DNA of 64,000 nucleotides from Spirochaetia bacterium (GTDB lineage Bacteria; Spirochaetota; Spirochaetia; SZUA-6; Bin103). Shown here piece after piece: positions 1 to 64,000 of this stretch. The first letter of the stretch is position 1; every line of letters starts with the position of its first letter. Under the pieces are notes generated by a model. That model did not search any database, was not told the origin of the DNA, and saw only the letters and a program-made list of their open reading frames with translations. Made by a program: the position numbers and the translations under genes. Location of the stretch: NCBI GenBank assembly GCA_965198005.1, contig CBDAOI010000003.1, positions 736,001 to 800,000 on the forward strand, written 5' to 3'.

Positions 1-1404
1 CCCGGCGTTGGCCCGGATCGTAGACCAGTCCTGTTGTCTGATCTCAACCTCGACCCCGATCTCGGCAAGGTAGCCTTGGACGATCTCACGATGCCCGACA
101 CTGGTGGGGTTGGCGATGATGTCGCTGATCGTGAATCGGATGCCGTCGGCGCCGCGCGGATACCCGGCCTCGTCGAGGAGCTTCTCGGCAGCTTCCGGGT
201 CGTACCGGTAGTACTGCTTGACCTCCTCGGGCCACTCCGCATACGGAATCGCAAATCCGGTGAACGGCTGTAACGAGCCCATGGGTTCGGGCCGCATCCA
301 ACCCTTGTAGTAGGTGTTGTTGATCGTTTCGAGGTCGACCGCCATCTGTATGGCGTGGCGCACGCGGATGTCGTCGAAGGGTGGCTTGGTCAGGTTGAAG
401 GCAGCGCCCTCCCCCCCCCGAAAATAGTACGCGTTCACCCTCAGCTCGGGGTTGGTCCGCTGCAGGCTGTCGATCGGGTCCACCGTAGAGAACTGACCGT
501 GGCCGTTGTGCGCAAGGTAGTCGATCTGGCCGGTGCGCATGGCCGATACGCGCGTCGCTTGGTCTGGCATGATCAGTCTGACCAGCTCGTCGATGTAGGG
601 CAAGCGGTTTTCGGGGTACTTCTCGTCGTGGCCCCAGTAGTCGGGATTCTTCACCCAGGTGATGGAGCTGCCGTCGACCCAGTCCGTCAGCATGAAGGGA
701 CCGGTACCGACCAGGTTCCTCCAGTCGGCGACGTCGCCGTGCTGCTCGATCGCCTCGGGGGCGTTTATGAACCCGATATTGTCGTCGATCAGCACCAACA
801 GCGCATCGAGGGGTGGATCCTGTAGCTTGACCTCGACCGTGTATCTGTCGGTGGCGGTGACCGATTCCCATGACAGGTCGGGGTATCGGGTGTTCTGGTC
901 GCTGGTGCGCCAGCGTTCGAAGTTGTACACCACGTCCTCGGCGGTCAGCTCGCGACCGTTCATCGGTGCCTTGTCGTGCCAGCGAACGCCCTGCCGGATG
1001 TGGAAGATATAGGTCGAAGGGTCGGGGATGTCCCAGCTTTCGGCCAGAGCCGGGGCAAACTGGTCTTCGAGCAGGAACTCGTTGGCGAGATTGTTCACGC
1101 TCCGATCGATGCCCCAGTTGGCGATGCCGAGCTTCTCGACCACGCCGCTGGCGGCAGATCCCGCCCCGATCCCACCGATCATCGCGTCGGAGTTCGGAGG
1201 CTCGAACGAGGCGCCGTAGGTCAGCGTCCCACCATACTCCGGTGCCGTGTACACCTTGCCGTTGGTGGGGTCGGTGACGTACTTCTTGTCGGCCGCGGCT
1301 GCCGCGCCGACGCTATCGCTTTCGCCGGCGGCGAACGAAACGGTGGCCACCAGCGCGAACGCCAGTGCCATCGATACTGCGATTGCTTTTGCTAAGAATC
1401 TCAT
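1..1404 (-). CDS. ABC transporter substrate-binding protein, family 5 (SBP1), 3' end outside window
   Basis: ATG at 1404 with GGAGG 7 nt upstream; paralog of 3930-5716; motifs PEYGGT, GTGP, DIRVRHA; frame checked at several points and open to position 1. Confidence 0.9.
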   Translation of the reverse strand, partial: MRFLAKAIAVSMALAFALVATVSFAAGESDSVGAAAAADKKYVTDPTNGKVYTAPEYGGTLTYGASFEPPNSDAMIGGIGAGSAASGVVEKLGIANWGIDRSVNNLANEFLLEDQFAPALAESWDIPDPSTYIFHIRQGVRWHDKAPMNGRELTAEDVVYNFERWRTSDQNTRYPDLSWESVTATDRYTVEVKLQDPPLDALLVLIDDNIGFINAPEAIEQHGDVADWRNLVGTGPFMLTDWVDGSSITWVKNPDYWGHDEKYPENRLPYIDELVRLIMPDQATRVSAMRTGQIDYLAHNGHGQFSTVDPIDSLQRTNPELRVNAYYFRGGEGAAFNLTKPPFDDIRVRHAIQMAVDLETINNTYYKGWMRPEPMGSLQPFTGFAIPYAEWPEEVKQYYRYDPEAAEKLLDEAGYPRGADGIRFTISDIIANPTSVGHREIVQGYLAEIGVEVEIRQQDWSTIRANAG

Positions 1405-1906
1405 CAAGATTCCTCCATCTAAATATGCAATGTGTCATAGAGCACTGATTCCACTGCCGGCCCCTCGCCTGCTCTACTCGAGCGAGGGCGACACCTTCTA
1501 GCGGCCTGCCTCGGCCGCTCGGTCCCTGCGTTAGTCCTGTATCCCGTGCCTCCTTTGACGCGCGTCGCGCCGACGGCATGCAAGCGATGACGTGACTCGC
1601 GTCACTCGCAACGTCATCGCTAGCCGGCCAGTGGGACCGATGGCATCAGCTCCCATGCGCGGACGATTGTAAAGGGCGGACGACCACATTCCGGTTAGCG
1701 CCGTTAGCGAAGGATAGCACGGCTCGTCTGGTCCCGCACACCCGCGCCCTTGCCCATCAGCAGTTCTCGGTGAACGGGTAGTGGTGGTGGTAGGATGCAC
1801 CGGCTGCGTTACCGCTAACCGGTGGGACCGCTGGGACGTGTCGTCACGCATCACGGTGCCCATGAGAACGCAGTCTGCCGCACGCGCGGCAAACAGTCAA
1901 GCGGGT
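1325..1906. repeat. Direct repeat copy 1 (SBP 5' end plus upstream region), copy 2 at ~5640-6214
   Basis: Near-identical sequence at offset 4312; I saw only one substitution and one 3-bp indel. Confidence 0.92.
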
Positions 1907-1936
1907 CGCGGCATCTGCTTCCCTCGCGCCCCCGAG

Positions 1937-2866
1937 CTACGCCTGCTTCTTCACCGGCTCGCGGCCGAGGCGCCCCCCGCCACCCCGCAGCCGCGGGTCG
2001 AGCAGGTCCCTGATCGCATCGCCGAACATGTTCAGGCTGTAGACCAGCACGGTCAGGAAGATACCGGGCCAGAACGCCAGCCACGGCGCCTGCTCCATGT
2101 ACTCGCGCCCTTCGCGGCTCAGCATCCCACCCCAGCTGGGAACCTCCAGTGGCAGACCGAAGCCGAGAAAGCTCAGCGAGGCCTCACTGATGATTACCGC
2201 ACCGATGTTGATACTGAAGACGATGATCACCGGCGCGACGATGTTGGGCACGACGTGGCGAATCAACGTCATTCCCCTCGATGACCCAATCGCCTCGGCC
2301 GCCTGAAAGTAGACATTCTCCTTGATGGCGATGACGGCGCTGCGGACCACCCTCGAGCCGCCGATGCCGCCGGTTACGCCGAGGACCACGATGGTCTGCA
2401 CCAGCCCCTGCCCCACGATGGACATGATGGTCAACAGGATCAGCAGTCCGGGTATCGACACCCAGGCATCGACGAATCGTTGGGTCGCCAGGTCGACCTT
2501 ACCGCCAACGAATCCGGAGGCACCGCCGATCACCAGGGCGACCACGACGTTGAGGGCGGTCGCGGCCAGGCCAACGGTCAGCGAAACACGCGCGCCGTAA
2601 ATCAGGCGGGTCAGCAGGTCGCGTCCGACATGATCGGTGCCGAGCAGAAAGCGCGCCGAGGGCCCGCTGAGCCGATCGGCCAGGCTCATCTCCAGCATTC
2701 CGTAGGGAGCCAGCACGTCGGCGAAGATGGCGGTCAGAACGAACAGCACGATGATGATCCCACTGGCGGTTCCCAGGGGTTTCTCTTTCCACAGCCGAGC
2801 GAAGAAGTAGGCGGCGCCGGTGCGGGTCTTCGGCTCGCTCACCGCGGTGGTCTGTCTGTCACTCAT
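1937..2866 (-). CDS. ABC transporter permease, DppC/OppC-like
   Basis: LLGTDHVGRD, EAA-type loop, GDAIRDLLDPR C-terminus. Confidence 0.93.
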   Translation of the reverse strand: MSDRQTTAVSEPKTRTGAAYFFARLWKEKPLGTASGIIIVLFVLTAIFADVLAPYGMLEMSLADRLSGPSARFLLGTDHVGRDLLTRLIYGARVSLTVGLAATALNVVVALVIGGASGFVGGKVDLATQRFVDAWVSIPGLLILLTIMSIVGQGLVQTIVVLGVTGGIGGSRVVRSAVIAIKENVYFQAAEAIGSSRGMTLIRHVVPNIVAPVIIVFSINIGAVIISEASLSFLGFGLPLEVPSWGGMLSREGREYMEQAPWLAFWPGIFLTVLVYSLNMFGDAIRDLLDPRLRGGGGRLGREPVKKQA

Positions 2867-3929: not shown

Positions 3930-5716
3930 CTAGCCGCCCATTTCCCTCTTCAGCGCCTGATCGATCCAGAGGCGGGCGAAGACGGCGTTCTTGTTCCAGA
4001 CCCCCATGTAGAAGTCACCGTCGAAACCCTGCAGCCACGGCTGGGTGACGTTGAACCATGGATTCAGGCCTCCCCACATGAAGATGTGGTTCTCTACGAG
4101 CCAGTAATCGGCCTCTCTCGCGAGCCGCTGATGTTCCTCCGCGGTGGCAGCCACTTTCAGTTGCTCGATCAGTGCGTCGTACTCCGGGTCACTGAGTCCT
4201 GGGACGTTGTTCGGGTGGCCCGACGACGTGGCGTTCAGAATTACCAGAGGGCGATACGGAGTGCCCTGACCCCAGTTGGTGATGCCGTCATACTCGCCCT
4301 TGCCACCCCCGAAGTTGGCCTGCATCGTAGGCCAGTCCTGTTGCCGGATCTCGACCTGGACCCCGATCTCGGCAAGGTAGCCCTGGACGATCTCACGATG
4401 CCCGATGCTCTGGGGGTTGTAGATCATGTCGCTGATCGTGAATCGGATGCCGTCGGCGCCGCGCGGATACCCGGCCTCGTCGAGGAGCTTCTCGGCAGCT
4501 TCCGGGTCGTACCGGTAGTACTGCCTGACCTCCTCGGGCCACTCAGCAAACGGAATCGCAAATCCGGTGGCGGGCTTTATCGTCCCCATGGGTTCGGGCC
4601 GCATCCAACCCTTGTAGTAGGTAGTGTTGATGGTTTCGAGGTCGACCGCCATCTGTATGGCGTGGCGCACGCGGATGTCGTCGAAGGGTGGCTTGGTCAC
4701 GTTGAAGGCAGCGCTCTCCCCCGCCCGAAAATAGTACGGGTTCACCCTCAGCTCGGGGTTGCTCCGCTGCAGGCTGTCGATCGGGTCCACCGTCTGAAAG
4801 TGTCCCCGGCTGTTGTGAGCAAGGTAGTCGATCTGGCCAGTACGCATGGCCGAGATGCGTGTCGCTTGGTCTGGCATGATCAGTCTGACCAGCTCGTCGA
4901 TGTAGGGCAGGCGGTTCTCGGGGTACTTCTCGTCGTGGCCCCAGTAGTCGGGATTCTTGACCCAGGTGATGGCGCTGCCGTCGACCCAGTCCGTCAACAT
5001 GAAGGGACCGGTACCGACCAGGTTCCTCCAGTCGGCGACGTCGCCGTGCTGCTCGATCACCTCGGGGCGTTTACGAACCCCATACTGTCCTCGATCAGCA
5101 CCAACAGCGCATCGAGGGGTGGATCGACCAGCTTGACCTCGACCGTGTATCTGTCGGTGGCGGTGACCGATTCCCATGACATCGCGGGGTATCGGGTGTT
5201 CTTGTCGCTGGTGCGCCAGCGCGCGATGTTGTACACCACGTCGTCGGCCGTGAGCTCGCGACCGTTCATCGGTGCCTTGTCGTGCCAGCGAACGCCCTGA
5301 CGGATGTGGAAGATATAGGTCGAAGGGTTGGGGATGTCCCAGCTTTCGGCCAGAGCCCCGGTAAAGTGGTCTTCGAGCAGGTACTCGTTGGCGAGATTGT
5401 TCACGCTCCGATCTATGCCCCAGTTGGCGATGCCGAGCTTCTCGACCACGCCGCTGGCGGCAGCTCCTGCCCCGATATCACCGACCATCGCGTCGGAGTT
5501 CGGAGGCTCCGACGAGGAGCCGTAGGTCAGCGTCCCACCATACTCCGGTGCCGTGTACACCTTGCCGTTGGTGGGGTCGGTGACGTACTTCTTGTCGGCG
5601 GCGGCTGCGGAGTCGTCGCTGTCGCTTTCGCCGGCCCCACCGGCGAACGAAACGGTGGCCACCAGCGCGAACGCCAGTGCCATCGATACTGCGATTGCTT
5701 TTGCTAAGAATCTCAT
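3930..5716 (-). CDS. ABC substrate-binding protein family 5 (SBP2), single frameshift at ~5064-5067
   Basis: Split over ORFs 5057-5719 and 3930-5177; G4 run where the paralog has G5, so possibly a sequencing error. Confidence 0.88.
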
Positions 5717-6214
5717 CAAGATTCCTCCATCTAAATATGCAATGTGTCATAGAGCACTGATTCCACTGCCGGCCCCTCGCCTGCTCTACTCGAGCGAGGG
5801 CGACACCTTCTAGCGGCCTGCCTCGGCCGCTCGGTCCCTGCGTTAGTCCTGTATCCCGTGCCTCCTTTGACGCGCGTCGCGCCGACGGCATGCAAGCGAT
5901 GACGTGACTCGCGTCACTCGCAACGTCATCGCTAGCCGGCCAGTGGGACCGATGGCATCAGCTCCCATGCGCGGACGATTGTAAAGGGCGGACGACCACA
6001 TTCCGGTTAGCGCCGTTAGCGAAGGATAGCACGGCTCGTCTGGTCCCGCACACCCGCGCCCTTGCCCATCAGCAGTTCTCGGTGAACGGGTAGTGGTGGT
6101 GGTAGGATGCACCGGCTGCGTTACCGCTAACCGGTGGGAGCGCTGGGACGTGTCGTCACGCATCACGGTGCCCAGAACGCAGTCTGCCGCACGCGCGGCA
6201 AACAGTCAAGCGGG
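5640..6214. repeat. Direct repeat copy 2 of 1325-1906
   Basis: Direct sequence comparison. Confidence 0.92.
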
Positions 6215-6731
6215 CATTCAGGTGCCCCCGCCAGCCGGTGGGAACTCTCCCACACGATCGCCTCATGCCTCGCTCCGCTCCGCGGCCAGCCACTCACCGA
6301 GACTAACAGCACAATAAGGATTGTAAGGCTTATTCCGGCGGTTGTCAAACCTGAATTCGGTGACGTGGATGGGACCCGTTCGGCATCTGCTTCCCTCGCG
6401 CCCCCTTCCGTAGAGCTATCTGCTTACTCTGTCATAAAATACCGAACACTGCCCGCGTCCCTTCATCCCCAAGAATAGTTCAGTCGATTGCCCTGCGAGG
6501 GGTCGGAGGTGGCGGTGGGCGACCCGGCACAGGCAGCGTCGTGTGCTCAGCTGGCAGGGCGCGCCGGCTGACCCACACCGGAGCCCAGGGTGGAGCCGTG
6601 CACCAAGCGCCTGCTGGCGGCGCAGGGAGCACACCAGCCCCCCGGCCAAGTCTCCCGGCGCGGTTACCCGGACGCGGTATGCGCGGTACCCGGTCCGACG
6701 CAGGCACTAATCAGGGATGATAACGTTCAGC

Positions 6732-6915
6732 GCTACCCGGACAGCGGCTGCGGCGGCGAGTTCATCCGCACCAGCACCTGGTCCCACGACGGGAACAGGA
6801 ATAGCCGAAACGTGGCACGCACCGCGCCCCAGAACTCCCGGCGCGCCCCGAACCCAGCCCGCACCTGCTGATACGGACCGTCCACCAGCTCGAATATCTG
6901 GTGCATGAAATAGGC
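6732..6915 (-). mobile_element. 3' fragment of ISNCY-type transposase
   Basis: Near-identical reverse complement of ~61809-61992. Confidence 0.85.
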
Positions 6916-11643: not shown

Positions 11644-12076
11644 CTAGCCGCGCGCATCGACGGCAGCGGTGCCTCGCCTCCCGCGTCAGACTGTCACTCG
11701 TCGTCGGGTAGCTGGAGCAACCGCTCGCTCCGCCACACACCAGTGGGATCCATGCGGGACTTCGCCTCGCTGCTCCGCCTGCCCACGGTCTGAATGGACA
11801 CGCTACCACCTAAAGTGCGCCTGTAGAACAATGGGCGCCGGCGTGCGTGTGCGGGACCAGACGAGTCGTGCTCGCCTCGCTCACCGAGAAGTGCTTGCCC
11901 TCGCGTGGCCGGCCGGCCATACTCCTCGTTCGCCTATGGGGACCGACGCCATCCACTCCAGCCGCCGGCTAGCGCTGACGCGGCGCCACGACCGCGGTGG
12001 GTCGCGCTTGACACCGATTTCGGCCGGCCGTTATACTCGTTCGCCTATGGGGACCGACACCATCCACCGACTACCT

Positions 12077-12202
12077 AACCGCGCGACAGCCAGCCGCTCG
12101 GCGCCGGTGCTGAGCGCGGCACCATTGATGCGTGTGGCACACAGCCGCCACGCATCCGTGCGTCCAGCGGCCGACCCCGTCGGCCGCCACTTCCACCAGT
12201 CC
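12077..12202 (+). repeat. ~126-bp non-coding repeat, second copy 62707-62832
   Basis: Direct comparison; both copies lie upstream of an SBP gene in the same orientation. Confidence 0.8.
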
Positions 12203-12424
12203 GGACCAACATGCGTAGCGACGCTTGCCGGCCGCCACCACGCGTGGCGTGCCCAGGCATGCCCTTTCGGCGCGGCGCGCGGGCGTCAAAGGAGGTACGG
12301 CCTAGAGGATTAACGCAGAGACCGGGCGGCCGCGAAAGGGTGTCGCCCTCGCTCGACTAAGGGAGCAGGCGAGGGGCCGGCAGTGGCAACAGCGCTCTCG
12401 AAATTTTTTGTGAAGGAGATCTCA

Positions 12425-14239
12425 ATGAGATTTTTCAAAACAGGCGTCGCGATAGTGTGCGGCCTCATGCTGACCGCGACCGGCCTCTGGGCCACCGGCG
12501 CGGACGAGGAGCCCGCAGCCGTTGCCGACAGAGAGACGGTGTTCGACCCCGCCAGCGGCATAACCTGGACCGCGCCAGAGTATGGCGGGACACTCACGTG
12601 GGGCGCTAACGGTCTGCCCAAGAATACTGATCTGTGGGCGCCTGGTGGCTGGACGCCTCACCTCATCAGTGGCGTTAATGAGAAGCTAGTCCACGGCAAC
12701 TGGGCAATATCCAGGGAAAAGGTGGCTGAACTAGCTTGGATTTATTCGAGCCCAGAGATGTACAGAGGGGCTCTGGCTGAAAGCTGGGAAATGCCCGACG
12801 ACACAACGTGGATCTGGAACATCCGCCAGGGCGTTTACTACCATGATAAGGCGCCGATGAACGGTCGGGAGTTCGATGCTTATGACGTCGAATGGAACTA
12901 TCACCGCTTTTGGGGTCTGGGTGATTTCACCGAAAACGGACCTACCCCCAACCTGGCTGTAAGAGGTTTTGGTCTAGAGCTCGAATCGGCAACGGCCACC
13001 GACAAATGGACGGTTGAGCTTAAGCTGACGAAGCCTTACCCCAATACGGTGTACTTGATGTCCCACAACCTGACTTGGATGTTAGCCCGCGAGGTAGTCG
13101 AGGAATACGGCGACTATGGGGATTGGAGGAACGTGGTCGGCACGGGGCCCTATCGACTGACTGACCTTGTCGAGGACACCTCGGCAACCTGGGAGAAGAA
13201 TCCCAACTACTGGGGCTACGACGAGAAATTCCCGGAGAACCGCCTACCCTATATTGACACGTTAAGGAACCTCGTTATACCCGACGAGGTAGCACGCCTG
13301 GCGGCAATGCGCACGCGTAAGATTGACATGCTGAGTATGACCGGCGACGCTCGGATATTCAGCGTCGACAATATAGAGAGCCTCCAGAAGACCAACCCTG
13401 AAATCGAGGTGTGGCCCGTTTATGCCTTTTCGAGTGGCTCTCATATTTTTAACCAGTCTCTGCCACTCATGCAGCACGTCAATGTGCGCAAGGCACTGCA
13501 GATGTCAGTGGACCGCGAGACAATTTCCGCTACCTTCCTTGGGGGTTGGGGAGATCCAGCGCCTAATGGGTTAATAAGTCAAAGGCAGGTAGGGTGGAGC
13601 TGGCCATATGAAGAATGGCCCGAAGAGGTCAAGGCAGGCTATAGGTATGACCCGGAAAGGGCAGAAGCGTTGCTTGATGAGGCCGGATATCCACGAGGCG
13701 CCGACGGCGTTCGATTCACGCTCAAGATAGGCCATGCCGGTTGGTCCGATCCGGCCTATCCAGAAGTCGTCATAGCGTACTTCGACGCCATTGGTGTTAA
13801 AAGCGAGCTGGTTGTGGTTCCTGGCGCTGAGGTGGGACATTACATGTCTACGGAAGCGCACGAGCTCCACATGGTTAATTGGGTGGCATATCCGTCATTT
13901 CCCCCCTCGCCCGATGTATATAGGCTAACAAGTAACCCCTGGAGTCGAACACTCGGTCGTCACTGGAGCAAAGCGAAGGACCCGGAAATGGACGCCCTGA
14001 TTGCCGAAATGCAAGCTACTACCACCGCGGAGGAGTGGCAGAGCTTACATGTACAGGTCGATGAGAAAACTGTAAGGGAGCACTGGGGCCTAGTTAAACC
14101 CATCTCCCCTCAGTTTAGCGTGACGCAGCCGTGGGTCGAGGGCTATTTCGGTGAAGCAGGTCTGGGATACGCTGAACGTAATACCTTCAAGGCCCGCCTC
14201 TGGATTGATAGTGCGCTGAAGGCAGAAATGGGCTACTAG
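12425..14239 (+). CDS. ABC substrate-binding protein family 5 (SBP3)
   Basis: AAGGAG RBS, signal peptide, PEYGGT, LAESW, GTGPY, RLWID. Confidence 0.93.
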   Translation: MRFFKTGVAIVCGLMLTATGLWATGADEEPAAVADRETVFDPASGITWTAPEYGGTLTWGANGLPKNTDLWAPGGWTPHLISGVNEKLVHGNWAISREKVAELAWIYSSPEMYRGALAESWEMPDDTTWIWNIRQGVYYHDKAPMNGREFDAYDVEWNYHRFWGLGDFTENGPTPNLAVRGFGLELESATATDKWTVELKLTKPYPNTVYLMSHNLTWMLAREVVEEYGDYGDWRNVVGTGPYRLTDLVEDTSATWEKNPNYWGYDEKFPENRLPYIDTLRNLVIPDEVARLAAMRTRKIDMLSMTGDARIFSVDNIESLQKTNPEIEVWPVYAFSSGSHIFNQSLPLMQHVNVRKALQMSVDRETISATFLGGWGDPAPNGLISQRQVGWSWPYEEWPEEVKAGYRYDPERAEALLDEAGYPRGADGVRFTLKIGHAGWSDPAYPEVVIAYFDAIGVKSELVVVPGAEVGHYMSTEAHELHMVNWVAYPSFPPSPDVYRLTSNPWSRTLGRHWSKAKDPEMDALIAEMQATTTAEEWQSLHVQVDEKTVREHWGLVKPISPQFSVTQPWVEGYFGEAGLGYAERNTFKARLWIDSALKAEMGY

Positions 14240-18929: not shown

Positions 18930-19735
18930 TTCATTATAGCCTGTGAGCCACGGCTGGGTCGCCGCATAGGTCGGGGCGATCGGACCAAATATCGTCCAGT
19001 ACTGCTCTATCGCATACTGATTCAGCTCTTTAGTAATGTTATTTGCTTCCTCCATAGTGGAAGCGGCCAACTTCTCCGCATGCTTGGCGTTATACCATGG
19101 GTCGTCGGTATTGGAGGTGTTCCGCCAATTCCACATAGTCCGTCTCGTAGCGGCCTAGATGCATAAGGTCGGTCTTGAATCGGATGACAGCCTGTGTAAT
19201 ATGCCGACTAAGCTGCCCCTGAGGTATTATATCGGCATAACCCTTATAGAATGCGTTGTTGATCTCTTCGAGGTTAATTGCCATCCGCAGCGCCTTGCGC
19301 ACCCTGATATCGTCAATCTGCGCCAACTGAACGTTCATGCCAATACTGTTATGCCCCGCATCGGAAGCCGGCCATATCCCGAGCTTGGAGTTGGTATTCA
19401 GGAGGCTTTCTACCTCCTCGAGAGTCTGTATCGGGGTCACGCCGAGAGAACCTAGGTAATCAAGCTGACCCGATCGCAGCGCCGCCATAGGTGTCGGCGG
19501 TTCCGTCATATTCAGGGTCCTTACCTCGTCAACATAGGGCAGGCGGTTCTCCGGATATTTTCGTCGTGGCCCCAGTAGTCGGGATTCTTCGTATGAGTGA
19601 AAGAGCTGCCCTCGACCCAGTCAGTCAGCATCATGGGTCCGGTGCCGACCAGGTTCCTCCAGTCGTTAGCGTGTCCGTCTTCCTCGATGACGTCGGGCGG
19701 GTATATCAAGCCGAACTCATCGTCCAAGATAGTTG
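18930..19735 (-). pseudogene. Degraded family 5 SBP (SBP4) with deletions and frameshifts
   Basis: DWRNLVGTGPMMLTDW, DDIRVRKAL, QPWLTGYNE pieces in different frames. Confidence 0.85.
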
Positions 19736-20220: not shown

Positions 20221-20242
20221 CACAGTGCATTCCAGACTACTT

Positions 20243-23909: not shown

Positions 23910-24335
23910 TGTCCGTGCTGCGGCTCAGAGATGAGGGTGATTGCCCTCATTCACGACCCGGTGGAGATCAAGCGCATCGTTGACCATCTAATCAAAAGTG
24001 GCAGAGCGCCTCCAGGGCTGAAGGTGTCTTGAGTGAGTTGAGCTTCGACATCCTCGCTGCGCCCCCTCTCTGGCCTTAGCGCCCGCGAAAGCTGCCCTCC
24101 GTCTTTCCAGTCAGCTCACCTGCAGCGGTTGCAGAACACACCAGTTGACAGCTTTGGCGCTTTCACCTAAGGTCGGAGCGTTCTGGTGGGGGGCCGAGAT
24201 GAGGGCAGAGATGGGTATTGACAGATCGACAGCTTGGGCCCATGGTTCACCCATGTTGAGAGTTGATGCGGGGGGAGTGGAATCTGCCAGGGCGCGCTCG
24301 TCCGATCCCGCAGGCTCTGTCGGGGCCAACTTGCC
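23910..24335 (+). mobile_element. 3' remnant of IS91/ISCR-like element
   Basis: 23910-24032 translates CPCCGSEMRVIALIHDPVEIKRIVDHL...RAPP, typical of IS91-family C-termini; downstream sequence is repeated at 31931-32056. Confidence 0.7.
24218..24246 (+). promoter_or_regulatory. Candidate sigma70 promoter, second copy 31940-31968
   Basis: TTGACA-17 nt-CATGGT; the -10 box is a weak match. Confidence 0.4.
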
Positions 24336-24354
24336 AGCCTGCAGCAGCTCCCGT

Positions 24355-24775
24355 CCTTGTTCGCGGGTTTCCCAGGTACTATGGGCCTGTCCGACTTCCC
24401 AGCTCCGTTCATCGTCGGCGTACGTCCTTGGACTTCCCGACACGGCCTGCGACGCCATCCGCCACAGGCGAAGCTGGGATCTCCCGGCTCCCGCGCAAGG
24501 TGTTTCCGTACGTGCCCGGGGTCTTGGACCGCGCAGGGTCCCGTGGCGCCTCGCGATATCGGCGCCCCGGGTGTGGCCTTCCGCATCCTCCTACGGCGTC
24601 GGCACCCCAAAGTAATTCCTTTCGCGGCTCGATACCCGGCCCGCACGTACCCCTGTCAACGCTTCACCCCCGCCCTCGCGGGCGACGGCGCATGACTCGG
24701 GGCCGCCGTGGGTCGCTAACCCTTCGACGTATGACTCTTCCATTCACAACACCCTGCCGGTTTGTGCCGGCGCAC
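24355..24775 (-). ncRNA. Group II intron 5' remnant (domain I to about domain III), no ORF, no domain V/VI
   Basis: Minus strand starts GTGCG at 24775; intron-like segments GAAGCGTTGACAGGGG, AAGTCGGACAGGCCCATAGTACC; distal part parallels 56486-56642. Confidence 0.82.
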
Positions 24776-24861
24776 AGGAGGTTCGAATGATACTCAAAGA
24801 ACCGCACGCGCGCGCGGCGTGAGCCGGGGTGAACCCGCTGAGTCACACGCCGCGCGCTTTT
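24776..24861 (+). promoter_or_regulatory. RBS + leader ORF MILKEPHARAA* (24787-24822) + 12-bp GC stem + TTTT; attenuator-like
   Basis: AGGAGG; stem 24810-24821 / 24846-24857; four copies in the window. Confidence 0.6.
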
Positions 24862-24967
24862 AGTGAATTTGACTCTGACTGGCCGTCCGCGTTGCGGGCA
24901 TGAGAGTAGCCAGGGAGCGGTAATCCGCTACGCAATACTCTCGAAAAATCTACATACGGAGCTACGT

Positions 24968-32243: not shown

Positions 32244-32368
32244 AGTGAATTTGACTCAGACTGGCCGTCTGCGTTGGCGGGCGCGCCCGTGTTGCGGGCG
32301 TCAGAGTAGCCAGGGAGCGGCAATCCGCTCCGCAATACTCTCGAAAAAATCTACATACGGAGCTACGT

Positions 32369-45165: not shown

Positions 45166-46672
45166 CTAACGACCCATGGCGTTCTTCAGCTCACTATCGA
45201 TCCAGATCCGGGCTTGGACGGTATTACGTTCACCCCATCCCATTCCTGCTTCACCGAAATAACCCTCGACCCACGGCTGGCTCACGGAAAACTGAGGGGA
45301 CTTGGATTTGACTAGGCCCCAGTGCTCCCTCACAGTGATCTCATCGGCCTGTCTCAAAAGACTCCTATACTCCTCCAAGTCGGTAGTTTCTTGGGAGGCA
45401 AGATACAGGGCGTCCATACGCGGGTCCTTCGCTTTGTTGTAGCTCCAGCCAAAGTTTTGGCTAATCCCCTTCATGGGATTCCAAAAGGTGACGCTGCTGC
45501 CGCCATTATATCCCCCTTGCACTAGCGCCCACTCGTGCGTGTCCGCGCTATTGTCAGCGTTATGCTCAGCGATAGTCTGCGGGACAAGCTCGCCTTCAAC
45601 GCCAATGGCGTCGAAGTACCCCATGATGAGTTCTGCATAGTCTGTGGTGTACCTCTCAAAGGCCCTTACCTTGAGCTTGAATCTATAGCCGTCGGCGCCG
45701 CGGGGATACCCGGCCTCATCAAGGAGCTCCTCGGCCCTTTCGGGGTTATAGGTATATTCTTGCTTGACCTCCTCGGGCCACTCTTCATATGGCCAGGCCC
45801 ACCCTTCTTCAAGATCTTGTCTCATTAACCCGGCAGGCGCTGGATCTCCATAACCCTTAAAGAAGCTGGCGGAATTTGCCTCGCGGTCCACTGACATCTG
45901 CAGTGCCTTGCGCACAATGGGGTCGGCAGTGGGCGGCAAAGCCCAGTTGAAAACGAAAACGCCGGCCGGTGCCCCAAGAAAGGGCCACACCTCGATTTCA
46001 GGGTTGGTCCGCTCGAGGGTCTCCAAATCGTCGACATTGTATATCCAAGAGTCGCCGAAGTTACCCATCACATCAATCTTACCCGTGCGGAATGCTGCCA
46101 GACGTGCTGACATCTCTTTCATCATCAGGGACCTTAACTCGTCAATATAGGGTAGGCGGTTCTCCGGGAATTTTTCGTCGTAGCCCCAGTAGTTAGGATT
46201 CTTCTCCCAGGTTACAGAGCTGCCGTCCACGTACTCAGTCAGTCTCCAGGGCCCGGTGCCGACCAGGTTCCTCCAGTCCTTAGCGTCTCCGTACTTCTCG
46301 ATTACCTCGGGAGCGTACGCAACCCAGTAGGGGTTGAGCAGTTTCCCCAGCACATCGAGGGTAGGCTCCGTCAGCTTCATAACTACCGTCCATTTGTCGG
46401 TGGCCGTTACCGATTCGAGACCTACACCCCAGGTGGTAGCAAATGTATGGGCGCTAGGTCCGGCCTCGGTGAAATCGCCCAGACCGAAATAGCGGTGATA
46501 GTTGTGTTCGACGTCATAGGCATCGAACTCCCGACCGTTCACCGGCTCCTTATCGTCCCAGTAAACGCCCTTGCGGATGTTCCAGATGAACGTTGTGTCG
46601 TCGGGCATCGACCAGCTTTCAGCCAGAGCCCCTGTAGTCATCTCTGGGGTCACAATGGCGTAGTCTCTACCG
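45166..46672 (-). pseudogene. Family 5 SBP (SBP7) lacking signal peptide and N-terminal region
   Basis: Begins just before GALAESW; rest of frame open to RIWID...MGR. Confidence 0.85.
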
Positions 46673-46677
46673 TTCTG

Positions 46678-46752
46678 AAGCGCGCGGCGTGTGACTCACC
46701 GGGTTCACGCCGCGCGTGCGTGCGGTTCTTTGAGTATCACTTTGCACCTCCT
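46678..46752 (-). promoter_or_regulatory. RBS + leader (GTG)ILKEPHARAA* (46740-46705) + hairpin with shortened loop
   Basis: Third copy of the leader element. Confidence 0.6.
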
Positions 46753-47456
46753 TTCTTGAGCTATGCGGTGCCCTGACGGATGCCTGACGGAAGCTGTGTG
46801 TCTCGGGCCGGCGCTAGACGTAAGATGGGGTGCGCCGCGCGCAGCGCGTGTGCGCCCCATTAGGCAAACACCGACCGCTCGGCCAACGTCGGCACCTGCG
46901 TCGCGCCGCCTCGGGGGGCGGTGGTCGGCGGAGCAACGAATGTGATTGACCGGCAACGCCGGCGGTGGCTTTTGTCGGCAGTAAGTCGCGGGCGGGGATC
47001 CGGGACGGTTGCGGTGGTCAGTGAACGAAGGTGGACTCAGCCGGCACCACACGTAGCCGGCCGCTACCCCCTTGCTCACGGCGCAGGCGCCCACCTCGGC
47101 GCGTACGGGGCGGTCAGCCGGAGGGGGGGGGGTAGGCGAGGATAGGACGCGCCGGTTGCGTTGCCGCTAGGAGCGTGTCGGCTGCCGCCGACGAGGTCCG
47201 AGCGGATCGGCGGAATAGACCGCCCCGACGCCTCGGGCGTCGGTTTATGGGGCGCCAACCGGTGGCTGCGCTGAGTAGTGTCATCAGGCATCGTTCGCAT
47301 CCGTTCGTTACCCGAGACACTACCCTCGCACACCTGCGGCAACCACGTCAAGCGGCAATTGAAGGTTTTTTTCGATTTTTTGGATTTTTTGGTATCTTAT
47401 GTGCCAGCCAGGCCAACGACCCACCACAATTGAGTGTCGTCCTAAAGTGTGCAAGC

Positions 47457-55438: not shown

Positions 55439-56373
55439 GAGCGTACCGTAGCGCCTCCGGGGGCGCCTCGATCAAGCAATTTCGTAGTGGGTGGAGCGCG
55501 CTCCCGAGGGCTCCCGGCACCCCCCTGTTCCCGCGCTGCGGAAGCCTCGGTCGGGGCCACGATCCAGCTCTTGCCGGCCTGCTCCCAGCGCGCCACCAGC
55601 CGCGGGCGCGGCGGCCCCCACAGGTCGCTCACCGCCCCGGCCGCCGCCATGCGGTCCCCCAGCGTGGCGGCGGCCGTGATCGCCCGCAGCACGGCCACGA
55701 TCGCTGCGCCGCGGCTCTGCCAACTGCGCCCCCAGCGCGCGGCGCCGTCCCGCACGGTCATGGTCGCTACGCCCAACCGCGTCGCGATCCGTTCGCGGGC
55801 GCCCTCGTCCAACCCCGGACTCACCCCGGTCAGGCGTCCGGCCACCTCCAGGCGGCGTCCTTGGGTGCGCCGCCGGCGCCGCTCCGGAGAGCGGTGCCAC
55901 CAGTGCACCTCGGCTGGCCAGTGCTCCCCCCGCGCCGCATCCTGCGCCGCCGCAAACAGCGTCGCCTGCCACTGCGGTCGTCTGCCGGCTGCGTCCAACA
56001 GCAGGTCCCCACTTGCGCTACAGGGTGTCGCCGCAACGCGGCCATACGGGTAGTGTCCGGGCGGATACAGGGTGTAGCGCCGGCCTCCATGGACCCGGCA
56101 CCCCACCACCGCTACCGCGTGGCAGGGCCCGCTCTTGCGCTTTCGGTAATGATCGACGAAGATGGCACACGTCTGCTCCCCTGTGGCGTAGACGCACCGC
56201 GACGGCAGCACGGCGCGCAAGGTCCCGTCCTGATCCGCTTGGTAGTTCGTCGTCGCCAACGGGAGCGCGTGTGCCTCGGTTGCACCCTCGGACACTCGCT
56301 GCCTCTCGTGAGCCTTGGCGGGCGGTTGTCTCCCGCCCGCCAAGGCCGCCTGAAAAAGTGAAGCCCGCAGCAT
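55435..56373 (-). CDS. Hypothetical protein upstream of transposase
   Basis: 312-aa ORF whose stop overlaps the transposase start; contains Cys/His-rich region and YTLYPPGHYPYGR; start uncertain. Confidence 0.55.
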   Translation of the reverse strand: MLRASLFQAALAGGRQPPAKAHERQRVSEGATEAHALPLATTNYQADQDGTLRAVLPSRCVYATGEQTCAIFVDHYRKRKSGPCHAVAVVGCRVHGGRRYTLYPPGHYPYGRVAATPCSASGDLLLDAAGRRPQWQATLFAAAQDAARGEHWPAEVHWWHRSPERRRRRTQGRRLEVAGRLTGVSPGLDEGARERIATRLGVATMTVRDGAARWGRSWQSRGAAIVAVLRAITAAATLGDRMAAAGAVSDLWGPPRPRLVARWEQAGKSWIVAPTEASAAREQGGAGSPRERAPPTTKLLDRGAPGGATVRS

Positions 56374-56481
56374 TCACCTGCTGCGGGCTCCTCACTTTAT
56401 ACCCCTATCGCTTCTCCGCCTACGCCATCATCACCGCAACCGGTACCCCCTCACCGCGCCCTTGGGCGCGCAACGAAGAAC

Positions 56482-58169
56482 TCAGGCACGTGCGTACGTC
56501 ATATACCGGGACCTGGGAGGTCTTCGGGTCGTCCCGGCGAGTCGTCGCCGGGACCGCGGAGGGAAGGCGTGAGGCTGGACCAAAGATGAACGACCCGAAG
56601 GAGTCGGACATGGGCATAGTAGCGGCGAAGCCGGCGAACAAGGGAGCGCAAGCGACTGCGGAGACGGTGGAGCGAAGGCCCATGACCAACGGGAATTCGC
56701 AAGGTCAAAGCACGGGCCGGACGCAGAGTCGGGCAACCGTGACACAGGCGGCCGAGCGGATACGGCAATTCGTAAAGAGAGAACCGCAGGAGAAACTCAC
56801 TGCGCTGCTGCACCACGTGACGCCGGAAGCGCTGCGGGTGGCCTATTACGCGCTGAAGCGTGAAGCGGCCCCGGGGGTGGACGGGATGACGTGGCGGGAG
56901 TACGAGACGGGGTTGGAAGTGCGTTTGCACGACCTGCACCGGCGAGTACACACAGGAGCGTACCGAGCGACCCCGGTACGGCGGGTCAACATCGACAAGC
57001 CGGACGGAGGCACACGACCGCTGGGGGTGGCCGCGCTGGAGGACAAGATCGTCCAGAAGGCCGTGGTGGATGTGATCCTGACACCGATCTATGAGGAGGA
57101 ATTTCTCGGGATCAGCTATGGGTTTCGACCGGGGCGAGGGGCACACGATGCGTTGGACGCACTGGCCTACGCCATCGAACGGCGCGAAGTGAACTGGATA
57201 TTGGACGCGGACATTCGCGCCTACTTCGACACGATCTCGCGGGACTGGTTGATCAGATTCCTGGAGCATCGGATTGGAGATCGGCGGGTGCTGCGGCTGA
57301 TAAAGAAGTGGCTGCGCGCTGGGGTACTGGAAGAAGGCCGACAGATCGACGCGGGGCGGGGTACAGCGCAAGGGTCGGTGATTTCACCGATGCTCGCGAA
57401 TATATACTTGCACTACGTGTTGGACCTGTGGGTCACCAAGAAGTGGCGGCCGCAGGAGGCGCGCGGAGACATGATCATAGTGCGCTACGCAGATGACTAT
57501 GTCGCCGGGTTCGAGCATCGTGACGATGCGGAACGCTTCCTGCGGGAACTGAAGGAGCGATTCAGAGGCTTCGAGCTGGAACTGAACGCCGACAAGACCC
57601 GACTCCTCGAGTTTGGACGGTATGCCGAAAGGAACCGCCGAGCACGTGGGGAAGGGCGACCGGAGACGTTCGACTTTCTGGGTTTCACGCATTATTGCAG
57701 GAAGGACAGGAAAGGACGCTTCGGGCTGGGGCGGAAGCCAATTCGGAAGCGGATGAATCGTACGCTGAAGAGGATCAAGATCGAACTCCGCAGACGCATG
57801 CATGATGACGTGATGGAAACCGGGCGCTGGCTGGGACGGGTACTGCGCGGATGGCTCAACTACTACGCGGTATGCGCGGATGGCTCAACTACTACGCGGT
57901 ACCCACCAGCTACCGCTACCTGCACCGATTCGTGTGGCGTCTGCGAGGAATCTGGGTAAAGATTCTACGCCGGAGGTCCCAGAAGGACCGATTCTCCTGG
58001 GCTTGGATGCTGGCGATCAGCATCGAGCTGTGGCCCCAACCCCGAATCGTACACCCATGGCCGGACCGGCGATTTGCCGTCAACCACCGAAGGTAGGAGC
58101 CGGATGGTTTAACGACCACGTCCGGATCTGTGCGGGGGGCGCCGGGTAACCGGCGTTCCTACCGCGAAC
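56482..58169 (+). mobile_element. 5'-truncated group II intron with RT ORF
   Basis: Domain V (GAGCCGGATG...CACGTCCGGATC, 58097-58128) and domain VI ending AC at ~58169; 5' side starts late in domain I. Confidence 0.85.
56739..58096 (+). pseudogene. ltrA: Group II intron reverse transcriptase/maturase, frameshifted by a 29-bp duplication; no endonuclease domain
   Basis: APGVDG, RPLG, SYGFRPGR, QGSVISP, YADD, FDFLGF, GWLNYY; start codon uncertain. Confidence 0.9.
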
Positions 58170-60491: not shown

Positions 60492-62402
60492 TCAGCAATT
60501 CTCGGTGAACAAAAATTGAGAGGGTCGGCGTGGGGGGCAATGGCGGGCGGGACGGCACGTAAGTGGTCGTATAGGTCATGAGTATGTAATAAGTTGCCTA
60601 CCGGCTGGACACTCGATCCCAGGGTTGTCATGCTCTCTCCTATGGCAAGAGGTCGCCACAGAGGTCCATTTTTACTTCGTTTTCGTGCGCTCCTGATCTC
60701 CTTGAACCTGCACGCCGCCAAGGTCGTCGATACCCGCCAAGCCAGCAAGGTCCGGTACTCCCTGCAGGATTGCTACGTGTGTGGTTTCGCCTTGTTTTAC
60801 CTCCAAGACCCTTCCGTGCTGGAGTTCCAACGCCGCTTCCAGGACCAACTCCGCACCAACAACCTCAACTCTACGTTTGGCGTCGCTCAGATCCCTGCCG
60901 ACTCCCAGTTCCGCGATCTGCTCGACAGCCATGACTATGAACCGCTGCTCGACTGCTTCGGCGACTGGATAGGGCGCATGCAGTACACCAAATGGCTGCA
61001 GCACTACCAGTTCCTCGACGGTCGCTATCTCATCACCATGGACGGCTCCCAGTACTTCAGCTCGTACCAGGTGAACTGTGAGTGCTGTCTGACCGCCACC
61101 AACAACGGCACCGTACGCTACCACCACGACATCCTGCAGACCGCCATCGTCCACCCCGACAAGCGGCAGGTGCTGCCGTTGGCTCCCGTGTTCATTCACA
61201 ACGCCGATGACTCTGGCGCCAAGAGCGCCAAACGCCGCAAGCAGGACTGTGAAATAAAAGCCGGCTACCGTGCCGTGCAGCGCATCCGTAACGACCATCC
61301 CCGGCTGGCTGCGGTGATCGTCGCCGATAGTCTGTACTCCAAGCAACCGTTCATCGAACAGGTGCGCGCCGCCCGCTTCTCGTTTCTGCTGGTGGCCAAG
61401 CCGGAGGATCACACCAGCCTGTACCAGGATATCGACGGGCTGCGCCGCGGTCGGCTGCTGGCCACCGCTGCACCATCGACGCGACCGGGGACCGGCATGA
61501 ATACGAGTGGGTTACCGGGGTACCGCTGAACGGCAAGCCCCGCAGTCCCCAGATCAACTTCGTGCACTACCGCATCGTACGTGCCGGCACGCCCACCTAT
61601 CAAAACGCCTGGGTGACCGACTTGGTGCCGACCGCTGGCAGCGTCGCGCGGATCGTGCGTGCGGGACGGGCACGCTGGAAGATCGAGAACGAGGGGTTCA
61701 ATACGCTGAAGCGCTGAAGCGCTGAAGAACCAGGGCTATCACCTGGAGCACAACTTCGGCCATGGTGACAAGTACCTGTCGGAGGCGTTCTTCGTGCCGG
61801 GCCTGCTGGCCTATTTCATGCACCAGATATTCGAGCTGGTGGACGGTCTGTATCAGCAGGTGCGGGCTGGGTTCGGGTCGCGCCGGGAGTTCTGGGGCGC
61901 GATCCGTGCCACGTTTCGGCTATTCCTGTTCCCGTCGTGGGACCAGGTGCTGGTGCGGATGAACTCGCCGCCGCAGCCGCTGTCCGGGTAGCCGCTCCCT
62001 GGGGAACTGAACCTGCTCCCTGAACGATCCCTGACTGGGGCTGCGGCGCAGGTGTGCCGGCGGCGCGCGGGCAACCGGCCCCGAAGGGCCGATCGCCGCA
62101 CCGCGCCAGCCCGCGGCATCGGCCGAGCGGCGGTGGCTGACGGTGGTCAGGTCATCGCACGCGGCTGCATGACGGTGGCTAAATACTTCACCTGCAATCA
62201 GTTACAGAATTTCTGCCGGGTCGGACCGTGCGTGCATTCACTCGGTGGGCCAACAGGTGGGCATGGTCGCGTTTCACACACTCGGAGGGCTTGAGCTTAT
62301 GACAGGGCTTGCGATCTCGCCCTCAAGACTTTTTCTGTAACCTTTCGCCCGCAATGTTGTGTTACTGTTAATGATGTTTTGCCGTTCCCCGAGAATTGCT
62401 GA
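60492..62402 (+). mobile_element. ISNCY-type insertion sequence
   Basis: Terminal inverted repeats TCAGCAATTCTCGGTGAAC (60492-60510) / GTTCCCCGAGAATTGCTGA (62384-62402); no target duplication seen. Confidence 0.8.
60642..61991 (+). pseudogene. DDE transposase with frameshifts (~61465 and 61704-61727)
   Basis: MDGSQYFSS, KQDCE, ADSLY, GRARWKIENEGFNTLK, LEHNFGHG. Confidence 0.85.
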
Positions 62403-62879
62403 AGGCCGGAGTCCGCGCTTGACATGGTCAGGCGAGCCTGTGACGATAGGGAGTTCGGGGATCGAACGGATGCCGATGACGGGCCATGATGACAGCCAGC
62501 GCAGTGGCCGGTTGGCGATGACTTTCGGTGACCTCCGAGTCGTTGACAGGTTTCCGGCCGCGTGCGACGGTTCACCGCTCGGGGTTGGATGGATGAGCAT
62601 GATGCGCCACGACGACAGTCAGCGCAGTGACCGGCTGGCGGTGACGCAGCTGTCGGCGGGTTCACTCACTCACTCACTCACTCACTCGCTCGCTAGTCGC
62701 CCAGCCAACCGCGCGACAGCCGTTCGCTCGGCGCCGGTGCTGAGCGCGGCACCATCGATCGGTGTGGCGCACAGCCGCCACGCGTCCGCGCGTCTAGCGG
62801 CCGACCGGGTCGGCCGCAGCCTCCACCAGTCCACTGAGCGAGCGTTGCCGGCAACCCAGCTTCGAGTATCCAGCTCACC

Positions 62880-63082
62880 TCCCAGCTCCATTCATCATCG
62901 GCGAGCGTGCTTTGGCTTGCCGACGACACGGCCTGCAGCGCCATCCGCACGCACCCCGGTCAACGCTTCACCCTCGCTCTTGCGAGCGGCAGCGCATGAC
63001 TCGGCGCCGCCGCCGTGGGCCGCCAGCCCTTCGACGTATGACTCTTCCATTCACCACACCCTGCCGGTTTTTGCCGGTGCAC
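62880..63082 (-). ncRNA. Second, internally deleted group II intron 5' remnant
   Basis: Similar to 24398-24775 with about 180 bp (including EBS1) deleted; 5' end reads GTGCA. Confidence 0.75.
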
Positions 63083-63168
63083 AGGAGGCCCGAATGATAC
63101 TCAAAGAGCCGTAGGCGCGCGCGGCGTGAGCCGGGGCGAACCCGGGTGAGTCACACGCCGCGCGCTTT
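63083..63168 (+). promoter_or_regulatory. RBS + leader MILKEP* (63094-63114) + hairpin + TTTT
   Basis: Fourth copy of the leader element, His codon replaced by TAG. Confidence 0.6.
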
Positions 63169-63266
63169 TGGTGAACTTGACTCAGACTGGCCGCCTGCGT
63201 TGCGCGTGGCCAGGGAGCGGCAAGTCGCTCCGAAATACTCTCGAGACAACATTCAAGGAGACAAGG

Positions 63267-64000
63267 ATGAAGATACTATTTGCAAGGACCTTCGCGATTG
63301 CGTTGGTCCTAGTTCTGACCGCAACCGGCCTCTGGGCCGCCGGCGCAGAAGAGGCACCGGCAGCCGCTGCCGAAAAGAAATATGTGACAGACCCCACCAC
63401 CGGTAAGGTGGTGGTGGCGCCAGAGTATGGCGGGACATTCACCTTCGCTCACCAAACGCTCTCTGGCATTTTTGACAGCGTGGTCCAAGGTAGGTGGGCG
63501 TCCGGCTATCACGGTCTCGTTCTAGATAAGCCGGCTCTCGCGGACTGGGGAAGAGATAGGGATGAATTTGCCTTGAATTTGCCGTGGCCAACTCTACCTT
63601 ACTTAAGAGGGGCACTGGTGGAAAGCTGGGAGCAAACTGACGACCTAACCATTATCTTCCACATCCGCAAGGGCGTTCACTGGCATGATAAGGAGCCGAT
63701 GAGCGGTCGGGAGTTTACTGCTGATGACATTGTATTTAACTATCACCGGATACTGGGTCTGGGCAGCGGCTTCACCGAACCTACCCCCCAGAGGACGGCT
63801 CAACTCCTTCCTATAAAAGTCGAATCGGTAAGGGCTACCGACAAATACACGGTTGTCTTTAAGCTGAAGGAGCCAAACATCAAGGCGCTGCAGGGTATCG
63901 TCGACGACGAAGTAGCTTATATACATCCCCCCGAGGTAATCAAGGAACACGGCGACACCACGGATTGGAGGAACCTGGTCGGCACCGGGCCCTATGAGCT
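63267..64000 (+). CDS. ABC substrate-binding protein family 5 (SBP8), 3' end outside window
   Basis: AAGGAG RBS, MKILFARTFAIALVL signal peptide, PEYGGT, DWRNLVGTGPY. Confidence 0.9.
   Translation, partial: MKILFARTFAIALVLVLTATGLWAAGAEEAPAAAAEKKYVTDPTTGKVVVAPEYGGTFTFAHQTLSGIFDSVVQGRWASGYHGLVLDKPALADWGRDRDEFALNLPWPTLPYLRGALVESWEQTDDLTIIFHIRKGVHWHDKEPMSGREFTADDIVFNYHRILGLGSGFTEPTPQRTAQLLPIKVESVRATDKYTVVFKLKEPNIKALQGIVDDEVAYIHPPEVIKEHGDTTDWRNLVGTGPYE

Follow-up and report, generated by a model that had tools for sequence, protein, structure and literature searches.

Several described systems bear on the upstream regions of the family-5 solute-binding protein (SBP) genes treated here, which lie in a window of 64,000 nucleotides (the whole stretch of DNA analysed, C3:736001-800000) from the genome of a sponge-associated Spirochaetia lineage. 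IS1397 and ISKpn1, which target repetitive extragenic palindromes (REP), are insertion sequences (IS) with sequence- or structure-specific targets, and an ISEcp1-type IS upstream of resistance genes supplies a promoter and mobilises the gene. Mycoplasma (vsp) and Borrelia (vlp/vsp) have multigene families of surface proteins in which the 5' regions are conserved, Bug/TctC of Bordetella is an SBP expansion, and E. coli pyrBI and tna are leader-peptide attenuators. Group IIC-attC introns are inserted at multi-copy, hairpin-bearing sites, antisense to the neighbouring genes (PMC7923331), and sequence- or structure-specific targets are likewise reported for IS1111/IS110 elements (PMC11187229).

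The host genome (4.89 Mb, four contigs, ~60% G+C) contains more than 120 paralogous family-5 SBP genes. Eight such genes or fragments (Pfam SBP_bac_5, PF00496) lie in the window, and two permease genes come after most of them. An earlier note on this DNA had claimed that their upstream regions are put together combinatorially from a few domesticated mobile-element ends, which would serve as expression modules. The account that we regard as rather probable is targeted, orientation-specific insertion into a multi-copy control region, followed by decay, duplication and recombination. The conserved 5' control region common to most of the SBP genes would offer many near-identical target sites, into which at least two unrelated mobile elements would insert, in a single orientation only. 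A 1.9-kb DDE-type IS would set its right end 8 bp before TTGAC(A/G) in the repeats upstream of SBP genes, with a 9-10-bp duplication, and a group II intron would retrohome in antisense, its insertion point coinciding with the 5' edge of the leader. The insertions would later be truncated and the SBP loci segmentally duplicated, and homologous exchange through the conserved leader and signal-peptide block would yield the mosaic that is observed. The processes are of known kinds (site-specific IS insertion, intron homing) and act on an unusual multi-copy regulatory target. The locus would give a testable case of mobile elements choosing a regulatory position, rather than a gene or a palindrome: for the IS a site at constant spacing from a -35-like hexamer, for the intron the base with which a conserved leader begins. 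In the literature searched, neither this SBP expansion nor an IS that targets -35 hexamers is described.

Blocks shared upstream of the SBP genes

When the upstream regions of the eight SBP genes were compared with the window by blastn, every block that the earlier note had placed there was recovered (E-values 1e-12 to 0). Parts of the IS recur at 6732-6915 (reverse complement of 61809-61992, 98%), at 31244-31760 (61899-62401, 94%) and at 31578-31651, which corresponds to both 31813-31885 and 62231-62304. The stretch 24209-24335 corresponds to 31931-32056 (98%), 24394-24462 resembles 62877-62948, 24641-24861 resembles 62945-63169 (88%), and 24776-24862 resembles 32158-32244 and the reverse complement of 46678-46752. 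The remaining pairs are 12077-12202 with 62707-62832 (88%), 11910-11956 with 12021-12067, and 1408-1905 with 5720-6214 (99%).

Genome-wide, copies were sought with nhmmer and counted when an SBP start followed on the same strand within 2.5 kb. This is the position of 24/26 copies of block A, 24/29 of A2b, 12/12 of A2c, 24/27 of B, 2/3 of C, 8/8 of D, 11/12 of the intron 5' part, 74/81 of the leader core, 22/26 of F, 6/7 of G, 28/32 of H1, 26/31 of H2 and 47/63 of H3. The share per module is 67-100%, against 3.8% expected by chance, and no copy of any of these modules in the whole genome lies upstream of an SBP gene on the opposite strand. The claim that each module keeps one orientation relative to its SBP gene, on whichever strand, thus holds genome-wide, and the modules are nearly exclusive to SBP genes. 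The earlier note had named random loci and random orientation as what would speak against it, and this is not what is found, because the copies lie upstream of SBP genes and on the strand of the gene. Such orientation locking is not general in this genome: matches to the reverse transcriptase gene of intron family 1 lie within the same distance upstream of SBP genes in 11/22 cases, on either strand. Over the 122 full-length SBP loci the order of the blocks is invariant, running from IS parts to a type-d terminal-repeat end or tandem units, then to G/H2, F, the intron remnant, an E or H1 leader and finally the SBP gene.

The block nearest the genes is the leader. Its 87-nt core, to which the earlier note had drawn attention, belongs to a block of ~195 nt, which extends from AGGAGG as far as the SBP start codon and which comprises, in its E type, the AGGAGG resembling a Shine-Dalgarno (SD) sequence, a short open reading frame (ORF), two hairpins (first a long GC hairpin, then a further one) and the SD of the SBP itself. 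The upstream ORF has 6 or 11 codons, of which the first six are conserved; beyond these it is variable, a stop at codon 7 being common. There are 81 genome copies of the E leader. For 77 of them an SBP frame follows on the same strand, its first aligned residue being 16-377 nt away (86-154 nt in 72 cases). Mean pairwise DNA identity over 63 loci is 0.80-0.91 between -180 and -31, compared with 0.39-0.87 in coding windows. Four other Spirochaetia assemblies carry the E leader at 37 loci, 33 of which continue into an SBP start. A second leader type, H1, is used by SBP1, SBP2 and SBP3 and has 32 genome copies. The leader is therefore not a mobile-element end, as had been claimed, but a native 5' control region, conserved and common to related species, and it is probably transcribed.

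The folds of the leader are more stable than those of shuffled sequence (z -3.45 and -2.66). The leader would act as RNA. A first RNAalifold alignment of 73 leaders from this genome gave a poor consensus. The GC hairpin is present in 40/40 aligned leaders, its tail being TTTT in some and TTC, CTC or GTC in others, and a consensus terminator scanner called no sense-strand terminator. A search of 24100-25000 against Rfam (E <=1) matched only the intron and no cis-regulatory RNA family for the leader, and 11800-12450, the H1 leader region of SBP3, had no match. The layout recalls pyrBI and tna, where a small ORF, likewise upstream and equipped with an SD, stops at the 5' arm of a strong GC hairpin or within it; unlike in these attenuators, the U-tract is unconserved, the peptide is unconserved past six codons and Rfam offers no match. 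The leader is a candidate for a new cis-regulatory element over dozens of operons with RNA-library contigs in sponge metatranscriptomes.

These contigs, from four sponge metatranscriptome runs in three studies, cover the leaders of SBP5 and SBP6 together with their coding regions; as contigs, they do not give transcript start, strand or expression level. Almost none cover 29372-31206 in the four runs, which is not evidence of silence. They also bear on the possibility that repeats were mis-joined in a metagenome-assembled genome. The assembly is repeat-rich, 90% complete with 3% contamination, and one contig end falls within a repeat. The junctions, however, are found again at dozens of loci in this genome, four independent assemblies show them too, and the RNA-library contigs cover those between leader and coding region, so that an artefact is scarcely credible as an explanation.

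Some blocks further upstream appear to be as native as the leader. Upstream of the 37 leaders in the related genomes, and in the same orientation, F is found at 6, U1 at 5 and the tandem units at 6 loci. Since they are common to related species, we read all three as native upstream DNA and not as element ends. The homology of U1 spans 310-364 nt at 72-100% identity, which makes it about as old as the coding DNA. The tandem units belong to a ~126-nt repeat that precedes many SBP genes, with a six-unit array at another SBP locus. Module C, labelled an IS91 end in the earlier note, has two full genome copies, both in the window, and a partial copy at C4:385567. No Y2_Tnp match was found near it, the only ones being far away at C1:52773 and C4:747629, and the IS91 label is therefore unsupported.

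The insertion sequence and the group II intron

A 13-bp terminal repeat at 60493, inverted at 62401, bounds the IS of the window and also other copies, several of which, elsewhere in the genome, have an intact transposase frame of 447-464 amino acids. The only Pfam matches of this transposase are DDE_Tnp_1 (E 3.8e-6) and DDE_Tnp_1_assoc (E 7.9e-5). NCBIfam gave weak matches to IS701 (22 bits, cut-off 150) and IS4 (16 bits) and none at E <=0.01 to the curated ISNCY/ISKra4 transposase models, and no IS family name appears in any of the 120 transposase homologues listed of 7,357 at E <=1e-10. The name ISNCY, under which the element had been introduced, is thus not borne out.

Among the nine IS copies that have both ends, four are flanked by a 9-10-bp target duplication, beyond which, in every one of the four, come 8 nt and TTGAC(A/G). 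TTGAC stands 16-18 nt past the right terminal repeat at 17/31 right ends (22/31 if TTGNNN variants are counted) and at none of the flanks outside 14 left ends (hand counts, perhaps off by one or two). In two of the four duplication-bearing copies, and at several other right ends, the target is a unit of the ~126-nt tandem repeat. Copies of block A are 94-100% identical to one another, save one at 78%, beside SBPs that are ~50% identical (protein), and on the SBP tree the IS shows a scattered distribution (20 changes, compared with 21.3 for shuffled labels). Copies so similar and so scattered are therefore best read as independent insertions with a strong preference for site and orientation, and not as inherited pieces. 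With its terminal repeats, transposases intact in some copies, and target duplications the IS is consequently an ordinary element, active or decaying. In the window its truncation has left the solo ends at 1758, 6070 and 31813-31922, as well as the fragment at 31244-31760. A related IS stands before an SBP leader in another species, in the same orientation (locus L087).

This IS is like IS1397/ISKpn1 and the IS1111/IS110 elements (PMC11187229) in accumulating at one repeated intergenic motif in a fixed orientation. It differs from them in being a DDE_Tnp_1 element with a 9-10-bp duplication, placed 8 bp before a -35-like hexamer in repeats that belong to one gene family. With ISEcp1 it shares a position directly upstream of the accompanied gene and co-oriented with it; unlike in ISEcp1, the promoter-like hexamers are not within the IS, and the target duplications enclose the IS and nothing else. 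The last point tells against one-ended mobilisation of the ISEcp1 type, in which the IS would move with the downstream SBP operon and which would explain the orientation and maybe the family expansion. What speaks for it is a 10.3-kb duplicate (99.8%) that starts exactly at a left IS end and has a new left flank. That the duplication brackets the IS alone in 4/9 copies, that the SBPs adjacent to the IS are mutually unrelated, and that the 10.3-kb duplicate stops at a contig end and may be a repeat assembly effect make such mobilisation very unlikely.

The 10.3-kb duplicate itself, C3:796493-806809 (window 60493 on), equals C2:10317-1 and runs to the end of contig C2, and is either a real IS-bounded duplication or an assembly effect caused by repeats. 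Outside the window, one solo terminal-repeat type is found at ~25 loci (among them C2:233449, C4:686127 and C4:1380239) and precedes SBP genes throughout; after it come a conserved stretch of ~40 nt, a poly-C run of very variable length and, often, (CA)n. Another terminal-repeat type, 183 nt further upstream, has a near-consensus -35/-10 pair behind it.

The second element is a group II intron (family 2), recognised by RF02005 in the two window remnants and, at 182-184 bits, in L006 and L007. At SBP5 the intron's 5' end (GTGCG, 24775) directly adjoins the first base of the leader. The 5' part has 12 genome copies, 11 of which are upstream of SBP genes, and in 10 of the 11 copies compared it shares the junction with the leader, over retained lengths of 104-1678 nt; the eleventh was aligned over 62 nt only. 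By tblastn, two long copies contain reverse transcriptase frames 49% identical to the TIGR04416 reverse transcriptase of the window, whereas none was found in the two window remnants. A 1931-nt copy that bears a reverse transcriptase (C4:409954-411884) lies exactly between an intact class-II upstream segment and the leader, and the same intron-leader junction occurs at five full loci and one partial locus in three other genomes. The intron is found on leaders of different subtypes, and on its own strand the GC hairpin precedes the insertion site by ~35 nt. The intron remnant of the earlier note is thus a group II intron indeed, and what it represents is ordinary antisense retrohoming into a multi-copy site, precise at the leader edge, rather than a domesticated module.

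The intron may be likened to group IIC-attC introns (PMC7923331) in its conserved, hairpin-bearing, multi-copy target, its antisense insertion and its frequent truncated copies. It differs from them in that the target is the 5' edge of a leader, not attC at the 3' end of a cassette, and in that insertion is ~35 nt after the hairpin and not directly after it, with no integron integrase. A second, unrelated group II intron family occupies 55600-58175 (reverse transcriptase at 56013..57959, TIGR04416) and has ~20 genome copies with 99-100% protein identity.

Pure vertical inheritance can be judged against both elements. A single long ancestral upstream region, copied with each SBP duplication and differentially deleted, would fit the strictly collinear order of the modules, the sharing of F, U1 and the tandem units with related species, and the age of U1. 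It is already contradicted for the IS and the intron, by the near-identity of IS copies beside diverged SBPs, target duplications that bracket the IS alone, an intact upstream segment that resumes beyond a full-length intron, and module presence that is unclustered on the SBP tree, and as a general account it is quite unlikely. Under targeted insertion, the reading that we prefer, the orientation bias would stem from recognition of the target and not from selection.

Assortment of the upstream blocks on the SBP tree

To the SBP genes the blocks are not coupled. On a FastTree tree of this star-like family, with changes compared to those for shuffled labels, the upstream class changes 23 times (25.1 when shuffled), and the presence of the IS, the intron, F or H3 is no more clustered than with shuffled labels. 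Protein identity is 50.2% for pairs of the same class and 49.9% for others. SBP3 and SBP6 have 79% DNA identity from codon 12 on, yet an H1 and an E leader, respectively. In five other genomes the nearest SBP6 homologue has the same blocks in a different combination each time; the best matches in related genomes reach 80% DNA identity, no closer than the in-genome paralogue SBP3, and true SBP6 orthologues are therefore not definable. Given this uncoupling and the varied combinations, the combinatorial picture drawn by the earlier note is real. Its simplest cause would be targeted insertion, many times over, together with homologous exchange through the conserved leader and signal-peptide block.

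Whether it amounts to a functional system is a separate matter. The proposal was one of promoter and leader shuffling, with domesticated ends acting as expression modules and as recombination homology for changeable control of a receptor library. Modules nearly exclusive to SBP genes, locked in orientation and collinear, would suit such a system, as would the several types of solo terminal-repeat segment that have -35-like, and in many cases also -10-like, hexamers at fixed distances behind them, the uncoupling of upstream classes from SBP phylogeny, the five combinations beside SBP6 homologues and the differing leaders of SBP3 and SBP6. Against it, the promoter-like hexamers belong to the target DNA beyond the IS ends and are found in repeat units without an IS as well; the IS and the intron are ordinary, with target duplications and, in some copies, intact genes; the truncation points of the intron vary by locus; and no dedicated recombinase recurs with the modules, the serine recombinase beside SBP5 being single-copy. 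We therefore accept the assortment and consider a dedicated shuffling system unlikely. Nor is the claim of domesticated ends supported: the leader, F, U1 and the tandem units are native, and the IS and the intron are ordinary elements. A related idea, which we hold to be doubtful though somewhat less so, is that the control region works as a landing pad, where the IS (8 bp before the -35-like hexamer) and the antisense intron insert, and that the retained ends and the ~375-nt leader/signal-peptide block re-assort promoters, leaders and receptor bodies. If this were true, element activity would diversify the regulation of a nutrient-receptor library.

Several observations weigh against targeted insertion followed by decay and recombination, or soften it. 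Because the FastTree tree is star-like, the missing clustering of modules may partly be missing resolution, although leader type does cluster on it (36 changes against 50.5). A target duplication is missing from five of the nine complete IS copies, among them that of the window and its duplicate; these copies may have been rearranged later. No TTGAC is present at the expected distance from the two type-d ends of the window, at 1758 and 6070. Some 46 short segments of types b, c and d bear a terminal repeat without an adjacent copy of the transposase of this IS, and most are followed at a fixed distance by hexamer pairs; they could have been retained for function rather than be products of decay. 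The main leader hairpin is near-invariant in 40 leaders from five genomes, with a compensatory double change in one of 21 predicted pairs, and as it hardly varies covariation cannot prove an RNA structure. Finally, a simple promoter scan, which reported a second site at 32052-32081 besides that in Table 1, found none in 62300-63300, and promoter function of the hexamers is therefore unproven. In the preferred reading the TTGAC hexamers would be promoters. A caution for annotation is that, without transcript start data, the blocks are not to be read as independent ‘domesticated’ promoters.

The SBP family is like vsp, vlp/vsp and Bug/TctC in being large and paralogous and in combining a variable mature part with a signal peptide and a 5' untranslated region that are highly conserved. 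It differs in that no expression site, invertible element or silent-cassette arrangement was seen here, and in that its genes head ordinary SBP-permease-permease operons. It represents a very large family of transporter receptors in an animal symbiont, in which a common leader is kept while the control DNA upstream is re-assorted.

Features of the window and neighbouring elements

Over the whole genome PF00496 gave 133 matches scored of 226 candidates, and a custom SBP profile found 203 ORF pieces, 122 of them full length, with a median protein identity of 46%. In the alignment of these 122 proteins strongly conserved framework stretches alternate with short hypervariable patches, and the N-terminal linker that follows the signal peptide ranks among the most conserved parts. 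SBP2 is a tandem duplicate of SBP1 (91-95% identity, 4.3-kb spacing). No ABC (ATP-binding cassette) ATPase domain was found in the 52 window ORFs scanned, a subset of the window's ORFs, and the operons appear to consist of an SBP and two permeases without ATPase genes of their own.

Table 1. Positions of SBP genes, upstream blocks and mobile-element parts in the window
Feature	Position	Strand	Basis and remarks
SBP1	1..1407	-	PF00496, E 2.7e-75; extends past window start
SBP2	3930..5719	-	Pfam; split in two frames, 3930..5177 and 5057..5719
SBP3	12383..14239	+	PF00496; start probably ATG 12426 (from sequence)
SBP fragment	19090..19509	-	Pfam
SBP5	24863..26791 (ORF)	+	Pfam and sequence reading; probable start ATG 24968
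Permeases after SBP5	27245..28255, 28274..29203		
SBP6	32369..34168	+	Pfam
SBP7	45166..46653	-	Pfam; N-terminus missing, ~108 family-profile positions
SBP8	63168..64000 (ORF)	+	Pfam and sequence; probable start ATG 63267; extends past window end
Full-length IS, 1909 bp	60493..62401	+	13-bp terminal inverted repeat; transposase frame broken, no target duplication
Solo right end (type d), variant-2 IS	1758..1905	-	Terminal repeat 1758-1770; 99% copy at 6070-6214
Truncated 3' part, variant-2 IS, upstream of SBP2	6070..6915	-	Transposase C-terminus 6732-6915, terminal repeat 6070-6082
IS 3' fragment	31244..31760	+	Terminal repeat 31748-31760; 94% to 61899-62401
Second, solo IS right end	31813..31922	+	Block B and type-a terminal repeat
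Family-2 group II intron, 5' 437 nt only	24339..24775	-	Antisense to SBP5; RF02005 24519-24738(-), 184 bits
Family-2 intron remnant, internal deletion	62877..63082	-	Antisense to SBP8; RF02005 62929-63045(-), 57 bits
E-type leader of SBP5	24776..24967	+	AGGAGG, 11-codon upstream ORF, GC hairpin, second hairpin, SD
E-type leader of SBP6	32158..32368	+	
Leader-core remnant (46678-46752) and U1-like segment before SBP7	46678..46796	-	blastn
E-type leader of SBP8	63083..63266	+	
H1-type proximal leader of SBP1	1439..1572	-	blastn; also 5751-5884 (SBP2), 12273-12398(+) (SBP3)
G/H2 block with the 45-bp motif of the earlier note	1612..1757	-	blastn; also 5924-6069
SBP3 upstream: H2-like block, 45-bp motif twice, block F	11831..12202	+	Motif 11910-11956 and 12021-12067; F 12077-12202
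Block F, 126 bp	62707..62832	+	blastn
Native upstream segment, class U1	32095..32157	+	
Two diverged ~126-nt tandem-repeat units	62404..62650	+	TTGACA 17 nt past IS end
Module C	24209..24335	+	
Module C, second copy	31931..32056	+	Starts with TTGACA 17 nt past terminal repeat
Promoter-like site TTGTCT-17 nt-TATTAT	31779..31807	+	18 nt past IS end; simple promoter scan

The mobile-element genes around the SBPs of the window encode an IS1182-family transposase, a serine recombinase, three consecutive tyrosine recombinases, Mu-like transposition proteins and a group II intron reverse transcriptase. As to signs of an integron, the tyrosine recombinases of the window belong to a three-recombinase element (51370-54585) and a transposon fragment (31087-31255), and the leader hairpin lies 5' of genes, unlike attC at the 3' ends of cassettes. 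Integron and invertible-promoter readings were dropped, as no matching recombinase or repeat arrangement was seen. The serine recombinase (21633..23237), with an excisionase-like ORF (23301..23705), forms a unit (19824-23882) directly upstream of SBP5 and beside the SBP fragment; the direct repeats that bound it, 19824-20220 and 23448-23882, are 397-435 nt long with a 294-nt core at 100%.

Block J (29382-29870, 58214-58716), which is outside the modules of the earlier note, gave no convincing protein when its forward frames were translated. It lies at an end of a transposon that encodes a Mu-like DDE transposase together with an AAA_22 ATPase and a tyrosine recombinase and that is located at 29382-31255 of the window and at L001 5978-10199. 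Block J has 75-102 genome copies, and at 22 loci it lies upstream of SBP genes on the opposite strand, several times just distal to tandem repeats. An IS1182-family element (9884-11410) stands upstream of SBP3 on the same strand, as do three of its four genome copies relative to SBP genes. A (TCAC)7.5 microsatellite (62662-62691) separates the tandem units from block F before SBP8, and a gene for a leucine-rich-repeat protein, made of 66-nt tandem units (44223-44843), lies between a truncated permease gene and SBP7.

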